Positions 61,832 to 63,088 of a DNA stretch of 64,000 nucleotides are shown one piece after another. The position numbers and the translations under genes are program-made. The DNA lies in the NCBI GenBank assembly GCA_045611705.1, contig JAZKXR010000007.1:248662-312661 (forward strand), given 5' to 3'. The notes under the pieces are model-generated. The model ran no database searches, was not told the origin of the DNA, and saw nothing but the letters and a program-made list of their open reading frames with translations. Numbering within the stretch: the stretch's first letter is position 1; each line of letters opens with the position of its first letter. This DNA is from Alphaproteobacteria bacterium (GTDB lineage: Bacteria; Pseudomonadota; Alphaproteobacteria; CAAHEQ01; UBA3637).

Positions 61832-62821
61832 TTAATCCATTTTACAAAAACCGCCACCGGCATTTATATAACCATCTGGACGCGCATTATTATAATTGCC
61901 ATTACGCGTTTTACAAGCTGTTGTATTTGTCCAATAACATGATTCATTATGTTTTCCAAAGGATGGCGTACATTTCTTAAATTCAGACCAAATTTTTTCC
62001 ATTTCCGCTTTAGAAACCGTTTTTCCCCCTTTCCCTTTGCACCAATTTTGAGCATCGGTATAATCAAAATATCCCCAATGACAATTACCGGAATAATCTT
62101 CATTATAATAATTACTTGCATAAAAACAGCCATGATTATTGCTACAAGAGGTTCTTCCTGGAATGGCTTCTCTGCATCGGCGTGTAAACTCTTCATGAGT
62201 GTTATAACAATATAACTGACCTTCAAACATAAAACCCAGAGCATCATCACCACAACGTTCTATTTTTCCCAAGCACTTTTGAGATTCTGACAAACAGGTT
62301 TTGCTTTGCAAATTACAAATTTTATTATCGTAGCAATCAGTATCCTTTAAACATTCAACACAGATGTCATTATAAACAAATCTTTTTGTTGGATCTTTCA
62401 ACTGCTTTTCACCATTCACACAGTTATAACAAGCATCAAAAGTCCCATTTACCGAAACACATTTTCCCAGGTCTCTATCAAAATCCTGACAATCAGGACA
62501 ACTCGGAACATGCTCACATTTTTCAGTGTTTTTATTACAGTATTGATTTGAAGGGCAAGTTTTCTTTAATGACAAAATACACCCCTTTTCATTTTTTGTA
62601 TCCGAAACACAACTTGTCCCTTCAACAGGTGCTGGACAACATTCACCTTCGCCTGTTTCTGTATTTTCAACACAATCATGTTCGCAAAACATTTCCAAAC
62701 ATGAATATTCAGGTGGGGTTTTATAACCACCCTTGGTTGAATCAAATTCATATCTGTTCCATCCGGCATAAACCATGGATGATGAAAGCATCAAAGCCGT
62801 CAATAAAGATATTTTTTTCAT
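61832..62821 (-). CDS. Cysteine-rich secreted protein (~329 aa mature precursor, ~50 Cys), eukaryote-like extracellular module
   Basis: Signal peptide MKKISLLTALMLSSSMVYA with GGGAGG RBS. Dense Cys spacing (CPDCQDF..C..C.NC..). The C-terminal block AQNWCKGKGGKTVSKAEMEKIW weakly resembles the C-type lectin core. The ORF-track GTG-extended start at 62872 is unlikely. Confidence 0.65.
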   Translation of the reverse strand: MKKISLLTALMLSSSMVYAGWNRYEFDSTKGGYKTPPEYSCLEMFCEHDCVENTETGEGECCPAPVEGTSCVSDTKNEKGCILSLKKTCPSNQYCNKNTEKCEHVPSCPDCQDFDRDLGKCVSVNGTFDACYNCVNGEKQLKDPTKRFVYNDICVECLKDTDCYDNKICNLQSKTCLSESQKCLGKIERCGDDALGFMFEGQLYCYNTHEEFTRRCREAIPGRTSCSNNHGCFYASNYYNEDYSGNCHWGYFDYTDAQNWCKGKGGKTVSKAEMEKIWSEFKKCTPSFGKHNESCYWTNTTACKTRNGNYNNARPDGYINAGGGFCKMD

Positions 62822-63088
62822 TAAAACCTCCCTTGTTTTATAAATTGTAAATTTGTGATAAAAAACACGCACCCAGTTTTATCCCAAACGCGTGTGATTA
62901 AAACTGACAGTCGGACAGGGTTATCTTGGCGATACCTCCCATGATATTTTCCTTATTTTTCAAGGACTTATTTGTTGTTTTAGCCGTTTTTTTGAATAAC
63001 AATGTCATTGTTTTTTCTTTCATAAAAAACAATCTATATTATATTTTATTTGATGTCAAGAAAAAACTTATTAAATATTCCAGACAAA

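Follow-up and report, generated by a model that had tools for sequence, protein, structure and literature searches.

The gene and its product

We analysed a 64,000-nucleotide stretch of DNA from an Alphaproteobacteria bacterium (contig JAZKXR010000007.1, positions 248,662 to 312,661; hereafter the window), in which a gene on the minus strand encodes an exported protein that is exceptionally rich in cysteine. An original prediction, made from the sequence of the window, had placed an open reading frame (ORF) at 61832-62872 on this strand, and these are the limits of the maximal frame in the ORF list. The ATG at 62821 is the most likely start of translation, and the upstream GTG at 62872 is disfavoured, since a ribosome-binding site lies upstream of the ATG, all homologues begin with MKK or MKH, and the extension from the GTG overlaps a hairpin and a T-run. 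With the start set in this way, the coding sequence occupies 61832..62821 (minus strand) and translates into 329 amino acids plus a stop codon. The ribosome-binding site, read from the sequence as AGGGAGG at 62827..62833 (minus strand), has its GGGAGG core 5 nt before the ATG, in agreement with the claim that the gene has a site of its own. The product is identical to a protein (P0001) encoded on a 368-kb NCBI contig, and we conclude that the gene is real and unusual.

The protein can be divided into four parts, all read on the minus strand. Residues 1-19 (62765..62821) form a Sec type I signal peptide, MKKISLLTALMLSSSMVYA/GW (the slash marks the cleavage site), with n-, h- and c-regions and V-x-A before the cleavage site, so that the clear signal peptide of the original prediction was recovered. 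It is almost invariant in the family, with the consensus MKHLSLLTALMLSSSMVYAGW, and in the structural model its predicted local distance difference test (pLDDT) value is ~50, as expected of a cleaved peptide; a gene for signal peptidase I lies within the window, at 40063-40884. It is followed by an N-terminal domain, which we call the N-domain or handle (residues 20-66, 62624..62764), marked by 20 invariant columns among 11 members and modelled with a pLDDT of 94-97, and by a cysteine-rich stalk (residues 67-182, 62276..62623), seen in the AlphaFold2 secondary structure, with a pLDDT of 86-97. The remaining 147 amino acids (residues 183-329, 61835..62275) make up a C-terminal module, the head, which holds 12 cysteines and was defined from AlphaFold2, Foldseek, hhalign and hidden Markov model (HMM) results together with its invariant residues.

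The number of cysteines, which had been given as about 50, was counted as 32, all of them in the mature part of the protein. The strings quoted in the original prediction (CPDCQDF, CYNCVNG, CVECLKDTDC and YTDAQNWCKGKGGKTVSKAEMEKIW) are all present. Cysteine accounts for 9.7% of the residues, whereas 39 other genes in the window average 1.1% and reach 2.8% at most; the homologues, moreover, retain these cysteines, and on both counts this richness is far beyond chance. In its composition the gene is native to its surroundings, as judged by GC content (35.6% against 36.5±3.9%), GC3 (24.8% against 30.5±5.0%) and codon-adaptation score (0.728 against 0.695±0.028), and recent horizontal acquisition was ruled out on these grounds.

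Neither the protein nor family profiles matched anything significantly in sequence searches of Pfam, NCBIfam and the PDB: the window protein had no Pfam hit even at E <= 10, and the PDB sequence searches gave no hit at E below 0.1. The one match that recurred, of a WW-domain to the G..YYYNT hairpin, was rejected as spurious. Relatives were obtained from a search of 5.8 billion proteins (11 relatives), from a filter-only HMMER scan of 1.84 billion representatives (44 relatives) and from a profile of the C-terminal part (15 relatives), which amounts to about 60 homologues overall. None of them has a functional name, the few named ones being entered as 'hypothetical protein [Alphaproteobacteria bacterium]', and no identifiably eukaryotic relative was found in either of the two large protein searches. 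A scan of genome collections was run with the head alignment, and a scan of JGI metagenomes with the N-module yielded only two loci. All seven genome loci (7/7) belong to metagenome-assembled genomes (MAGs) of Alphaproteobacteria with 36-43% GC, one of them explicitly from yak omasum, and uncultured gut Alphaproteobacteria are so far the only bacteria from which the family is known. It is unannotated, having neither a Pfam nor an NCBIfam model.

Predicted folds of the head and the stalk

The head was modelled with AlphaFold2 from 13 sequences, with a pLDDT of 84.6 and a predicted template modelling (TM) score of 0.80. The model begins with an N-terminal hairpin pair and a short helix, followed by a bridge, a helix, a short strand, a helix and four strands, and it thus contains the secondary-structure order of the C-type-lectin-like domain (CTLD) superfamily, beta1-alpha1-alpha2-beta2-beta3-beta4-beta5. 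When the head was compared with the PDB using Foldseek, no match reached E <= 0.001 and each single match was weak (E >= 0.02), but the top 23 hits all belonged to the CTLD superfamily and came from many of its families. Among them was the Link module of TSG-6, with a probability of 0.60-0.72 and a target TM score of 0.43-0.57, and the other top hits included the C-terminal domain of Bd2740, EgtB/FGE, CD94/NKG2A, TC14, CD44, LYVE-1, NKR-P1B, codakine and CD23; intimin appeared at rank 27, with 20% identity and a root-mean-square deviation of 3.7 angstroms. The full-length model gave the same CTLD picture, with Bd2740 at the top (probability 0.69), and among viral models (BFVD) the best matches were two C-type-lectin-like proteins, herpesvirus UL45 (E = 0.023, probability 0.94) and poxvirus OPG161/A33. 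Identity to the structural matches was only 9-20%. An enzyme of the FGE/EgtB type was considered and rejected, as these proteins have ~400 residues and match the head only via their CTLD-like subdomain (TM score 0.18).

Profile comparisons pointed to the same fold class. Aligned by hhalign with five PDB-verified Link modules, a 19-sequence head profile gave a probability of 44% over 29 columns, which span the alpha1-strand-alpha2 block and place Cys261 of the family on the first cysteine of the Link module. With the C-type lectin struthiocalcin-1 the head HMM also gave an in-register alignment, not significant by itself (E = 0.25), in which GNC-WGYF falls on GNC-YGYF, W..AE.WC on W..AE.WC and YW on WIGL. 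The core motif of CTLDs was found as DAQNWC in alpha1 and CYWT at the position of beta2. It was a C-terminal block resembling C-type lectins that had first been noticed in the sequence, and this observation gained support from the Foldseek hits, from the hhalign match on exactly that block and from the struthiocalcin-1 register. Every structural match of the head is weak taken singly; the three weak lines (Foldseek, hhalign and HMM) agree, however, and support the assignment of the predicted head to the compact CTLD fold class.

Across the 19 head sequences, C216, R217, N246, C247, G250, C261, E273, P286 and Y296 are invariant, and Y251, W297 and C326 are conserved in at least 90%; the motifs specific to the family are RCREA, GNCxWGY, YWT and PDGYxxxGGxxC. 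In the predicted fold Cys261 falls within helix alpha1 and Cys326 on the final strand, and by position 261-326 would correspond to the canonical C1-C4 pair of CTLDs and 216/247 to the N-terminal pair of long-form CTLDs. The remaining eight head cysteines include 183 and 284, 226 and 232, and 295 and 303, which are lost pairwise in distant members, suggesting disulfides specific to the subfamily.

No match to Lectin_C, Xlink, Intimin_C or DUF1566 was detected, as neither the window protein nor the 13 head sequences gave any Pfam hit. The tripeptides EPN, QPD and WND are absent from the sequence; the sole similar string, RPD (in NARPDGY), stands 11 residues before the last cysteine and outside the long-loop position. 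Since these motifs and a long-loop region are both lacking, the head is not a classical calcium-dependent carbohydrate-recognition domain. In this respect, as in its size and predicted order of elements, it is like the Link module and the intimin/invasin C-terminal domain, which are calcium-independent, also have no long-loop region, share the cysteines in alpha1 and in the last strand, and show the core W/Y..A..xC...G..L.t..E/Q. Link and intimin were the best Foldseek hits, and Link the only profile-profile hit. The head differs from them in that it has no significant sequence similarity to either and no Pfam Xlink or intimin_C hit, and in the addition of a beta-hairpin extension at its N-terminus and, within this subfamily, of four further predicted disulfides.

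A closer parallel in overall build is Bd2740 of the Bdellovibrio bacteriovorus MAT fibre, whose C-terminal domain, the tip of an adhesive fibre, has a C-type lectin fold that was determined by crystallography and lacks a calcium site (PMC10769870; PDB 8oks). Like the window protein as predicted, Bd2740 consists of a long spacer ending in a calcium-independent CTLD head; in its family of paralogues the tips have diversified into TNF-like, beta-sandwich and lectin forms (PMC10769870). In contrast to the monomer-like, disulfide-rich hairpin stalk of the window protein, the shaft of Bd2740 is a trimeric fibre; identity between the two is 9-11%, and the organisms and their ecology differ.

The full-length AlphaFold2 model, built from 40 sequences, had a pLDDT of 87.1, with 90-97 over residues 21-185. 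In this model the N-domain and stalk form a chain of about seven beta-hairpins, about six of them in the stalk and one in the N-domain, and the stalk carries three CxxC motifs ~20 residues apart. An elongated chain of small disulfide-rich hairpins with CxxC is also the build of the cysteine-rich domains of TNF receptors, of furin-like repeats and of EGF arrays. Foldseek comparison of the stalk with such ectodomains gave only faint matches, to DcR3, 4-1BB, OPG, R-spondin Fu1-Fu2, Pfs25 and megalin, all with a probability below 0.1, and the stalk has no Pfam EGF, TNFR, furin-like or variant-specific surface protein (VSP) hit. The EGF- or defensin-like cysteine spacing that had been proposed was not borne out: there was no hit to an EGF family in Pfam at E <= 10 and no CxC...C(8-12)C unit, the spacing does not fit the six-cysteine pattern of EGF, and defensin, Kazal and antimicrobial peptide folds were found neither in Pfam nor among the Foldseek matches. 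The CXXC-rich surface proteins of protists, such as the VSPs of Giardia, offer a further comparison for the stalk.

Modular relatives and proposed function

The homologues split into two independent sets, of which set A aligns with residues 1 to ~180 and set B with residues 183-329 only. Members of set A are built alike as far as the cysteine-rich repeats that come after the signal peptide and N-domain, and beyond these repeats they carry C-termini that are unrelated to one another. Their N-domain, with the motif GWxRYEFD..YSCLEMxCEHDCVEN..GEGECCP, is common to more than 35 such proteins, and the alternative C-termini comprise Gly_rich_2 (3e-7) and weak matches to VWA_2 and an Ig-like family (Big_3_5). 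In set B, the head was found behind a bare signal peptide (P0017 and P0028), behind a transmembrane anchor (P0004) and behind cysteine-rich repeats in proteins of 404-1108 amino acids (P0012, P0013, P0046 and P0047). P0012 and P0013 start with a prepilin-like G/xxxLE hydrophobic helix, as does a 793-aa ORF of locus L001 that contains a P0013-type protein, and P0046 and P0047 probably do so too. HMM matches to this start were below threshold, with N_methyl at 16.8 bits against a cutoff of 21.2, a prepilin-peptidase-dependent protein at E = 1e-4 and GspH at E = 0.008. At a further locus (L006, 7482-8351, plus strand; UBA3768) the head is fused to an N-terminal domain with the motif GYDPRNLLSGHYLEF, GDYXXLXY-like by eye, which is a fourth, unrelated carrier for it; the start of this gene overlaps the end of a gene for a polytopic membrane protein.

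Modular type IV pilins are known from Streptococcus sanguinis, in which PilB carries a vWA module and PilC a lectin module (PMC8179133, PMC9934059). P0012, P0013 and the L001 ORF likewise graft a putative binding module, the head, on a pilin-like start. The window protein itself differs from them, as its signal peptide is type I (MKK-hydrophobic-VYA/G) and not class III, and it is not a pilin.

Exchange of modules was also seen at corresponding positions of related genomes. P0003 (N-module and head), P0004 (transmembrane anchor and head) and P0005 (N-module and another C-terminus) are encoded at the same chromosomal site, which adjoins genes for a 194-aa outer-membrane beta-barrel and a 156-aa bPH_2 protein. 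In the loci concerned (L008, L017 and L018) these two flanking genes are 68-93% identical between contigs and adjoin three different combinations of modules, while the variable genes share 25% identity, or none, outside the common module; judging by these comparisons, the site next to the outer-membrane protein and bPH_2 genes is a recombination hot spot. In a similar manner, argS of locus L019 is 86% identical to argS of the window, while the family member in the next gene is only 28% identical to the window protein and has another head. Other family members lie between recJ and pgi, or after a gene for an SNF transporter.

The L019 member (4641-5960, plus strand; JGI Ga0310690_10009657) comprises 439 amino acids and directly follows argS. 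In its signal peptide, N-domain and cysteine-rich repeats it conforms to the family, whereas its C-terminus is different (MTWWSAENWCASHGWTL...CYWTN...ALCQ) and by eye may be another CTLD- or DUF1566-like head. This member had no Pfam hit, and an hhalign comparison of the head family with its head was not significant (19%). W..A..WC..G motifs similar to this C-terminus occur twice in P0025.

When the window protein was compared with its nearest relatives, the head was the most conserved part and the stalk the fastest-diverging one, with 86% identity in the head against 51% in the stalk for P0002, and 70% against 28% for P0003. Taken together, the alignments lend good support to treating the N-domain and stalk as a single evolutionary module, with the head as a second. 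As a unit the head is independent, mobile and extracytoplasmic, and its predicted fold is of the CTLD type.

Our proposal, in which we place slightly better than even confidence, is that the gene encodes a Sec-exported binding protein of modular build and rich in disulfides, which most likely functions as a lectin or adhesin. That its signal peptide directs export and is cleaved after VYA is well supported; in the periplasm the 32 cysteines would form 16 disulfides, among them 183-284, 226-232 and 295-303 in addition to the CTLD-type pairs 216-247 and 261-326. The signal peptide and N-domain may serve as a shared handle for surface display or onward secretion, with the rigid stalk as a spacer, and the head would bind a glycan or protein on host, microbe or food particle in the animal gut, independently of a classical calcium site. 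The organism would hold a repertoire of such proteins with interchangeable heads. We favour binding over toxicity or a housekeeping role because the head also occurs on pilin-like proteins, the alternative heads are of binding type and immunity genes were absent from the loci examined.

Several points weigh against this proposal. The Sec signal reaches only the periplasm, and no system for outer-membrane translocation or anchoring was identified in the window, whose 64 kb hold housekeeping genes only. The sequence contains no carbohydrate or calcium motif, we infer the disulfide pairs and any binding pocket, the role given to the N-domain is a guess, and the pilin-like nature of the relatives comes from sub-threshold hits and motifs read by eye.

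A more far-reaching version of the proposal, which we put forward tentatively and think rather doubtful as a whole, is that of a lineage-specific display system in which the almost invariant signal peptide and the 47-residue, cysteine-rich N-domain act as a common handle for export or anchoring and recombining heads are presented on disulfide-rich stalks. Among these heads would be a hitherto unrecognized bacterial family of compact, Link-like CTLDs, placed at the tips of type IV pilins as well, whose ligands would be glycans of a host or protist, perhaps of glycosaminoglycan or mucin type.

Three other explanations were weighed against a binding protein. The protein might be a resident of the periplasm or envelope that is not exposed at the surface, with a structural role, a role in metal handling through zinc bound at CxxC, or one in binding an envelope polymer. 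We consider this unlikely. The Sec signal with no secretion system nearby, the three CxxC motifs of the stalk, whose spacing resembles zinc-ribbon knuckles, and the position of the gene among envelope-biogenesis genes (ppiD-like and lapB-like) all fit a periplasmic protein, but this location is not conserved, since family members lie at unrelated loci. Rapid head swapping, and stalks of 28-51% identity beside housekeeping genes of 86%, are moreover typical of outward-facing proteins and not of housekeeping proteins of the envelope, and the occurrence of this head on pilin-like proteins speaks for display outside the cell. The cysteines are even in number and all lie in hairpins that were modelled with confidence, which agrees with disulfides. 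A polymorphic toxin or antimicrobial effector, in which the conserved N-terminus would deliver variable toxic C-termini against competitors, seems to us improbable, even though a conserved N-terminus with swappable C-termini and exchange at syntenic loci are formally like polymorphic toxins and small cysteine-rich secreted proteins are often antimicrobial. No small immunity-like gene was found downstream at the seven loci examined, where the neighbours are convergent housekeeping or outer-membrane protein genes, and no toxin family was matched. The recognizable alternative C-termini are of binding type (CTLD-like, Ig-like, VWA and Gly-rich) and not nucleases, deaminases or pore formers, and the pilin-like proteins that also bear the head are devices of display and not of delivery.

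The original prediction had gone further and suggested host-acquired or host-mimicking modules, of EGF-like and C-type lectin type; in full, this reading would have them come from an animal or protist host and imitate its extracellular proteins. The native GC, GC3 and codon usage, and a set of about 60 relatives in which no eukaryotic homologue was found and all named ones are from Alphaproteobacteria MAGs, make this very improbable, as do identities of no more than 9-20% to the structural matches and the lack of Pfam EGF, Lectin_C and Xlink hits. What could be said for a host origin is that it is in animals that the CTLD and Link folds, and extracellular modules rich in disulfides, are commonest, that animal Link modules (those of TSG-6, CD44 and LYVE-1) rank among the best PDB hits, and that the organism is gut-associated and also encodes a GT10 fucosyltransferase; CTLD folds are, however, long established in bacteria and phages, as in intimin, Bd2740 and Mtd (PMC10769870). 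Thus a lectin-like fold is predicted, which upholds one part of the original prediction, while the confinement of the homologues to bacteria goes against the other: the CTLD fold is shared with host proteins, but no common ancestry is detectable.

For the binding protein that we favour, the best description is that of a sequence family not known before, and of a new architectural variant among bacterial modular adhesin-like proteins with CTLD-fold tips. It unites a new family of predicted CTLD fold with a conserved handle, a cysteine-rich stalk and a swappable head in a poorly known lineage of animal-gut bacteria, and its value lies in defining an unannotated, recombining repertoire of presumed surface proteins and not in host mimicry. 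If the head is a lectin or adhesin, it would offer a direct route to what uncultured gut Alphaproteobacteria attach to, and a new bacterial case of compact CTLDs used as exchangeable tips on Sec-exported stalks and pilins.

Flanking signals and other genes of the window

The cysteine-rich gene is preceded on its own strand by argS, and the convergent gene downstream (60584-61759) bears a LapB-type zinc ribbon. Between the latter and the cysteine-rich gene lies a bidirectional intrinsic terminator at about 61774..61809 (both strands), identified from RNA folds as AAAAAATCCCCTC-loop-GAGGGGATTTTTT, a GC-rich hairpin flanked by A and T runs and common to both genes. Its predicted folding energies on the two strands are -23.5 and -19.8 kcal/mol (z = -5.8 and -5.5), and none of 200 shuffles was as stable. 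A terminator shared with a convergent gene was therefore correctly recognized in the original prediction, but that gene, which had been called HemY-like and placed upstream, is the lapB-like gene and lies downstream.

On the other side of the gene, a terminator scan and folding located a 12-bp hairpin and T-run at 62855..62895 (minus strand), ~35 nt before the ribosome-binding site, which would be either the argS terminator or a leader attenuator. A sigma-70-like sequence, TTGACA-17-TAGATT, stands just past the argS stop codon (63031..63059, minus strand) and matches the consensus at 10/12 positions; such sites are no commoner in the region than in shuffles, so that it is a promoter candidate only. 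The spacer between argS and the gene measures 267 nt in the window and ~55-75 nt in the syntenic locus L019. An Rfam search of the flanks of the gene gave only sub-threshold matches, driven by the terminator hairpin.

The gene content of the window is all housekeeping, including rpoD, suf, glycolysis and ATP synthase genes, lepB, rnc, era, recO, polA, glgB, glgX and a ppiD-like gene, and it holds no paralogue of the cysteine-rich gene. A prophage or tail-fibre origin was ruled out by these purely housekeeping surroundings. The variable protein of a diversity-generating retroelement was likewise rejected: sensitive blastn found no template repeat in the window, the best second match of the gene being 41 nt at 76%, there is no reverse transcriptase, and the neighbours are housekeeping genes.

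Some further genes of the window deserve mention. Between the ppiD-like and lapB-like genes, a gene at 59689-60570 (plus strand) encodes an acidic protein of 293 amino acids with an N-terminal signal peptide, ITE/NNQEE-type repeats and no Pfam hit. The ATP synthase genes (26198-32736, plus strand) follow the order beta, a 135-aa ORF, small ORFs, a, (c), b, alpha and gamma, which is typical of N-type (Na+) ATPase operons and unlike the standard F-type operon; the 135-aa ORF after beta is epsilon by position only, and delta was not detected in a scan of this region. At 19315-20280 (plus strand) lies a gene for a GT10 alpha-1,3-fucosyltransferase (FucT_N, 4e-27; Glyco_transf_10, 5e-18). Enzymes of this Lewis-antigen type are best known from host mimicry by Helicobacter pylori, and it is with this fucosyltransferase, more than with the cysteine-rich protein, that a host-associated lifestyle agrees. 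On the minus strand, at 24308-25300, an outer-membrane beta-barrel of 330 amino acids is encoded that matches the Surface_Ag_2 and Opacity porin families and is 28% identical to the outer-membrane protein flanking the variable locus of L008.

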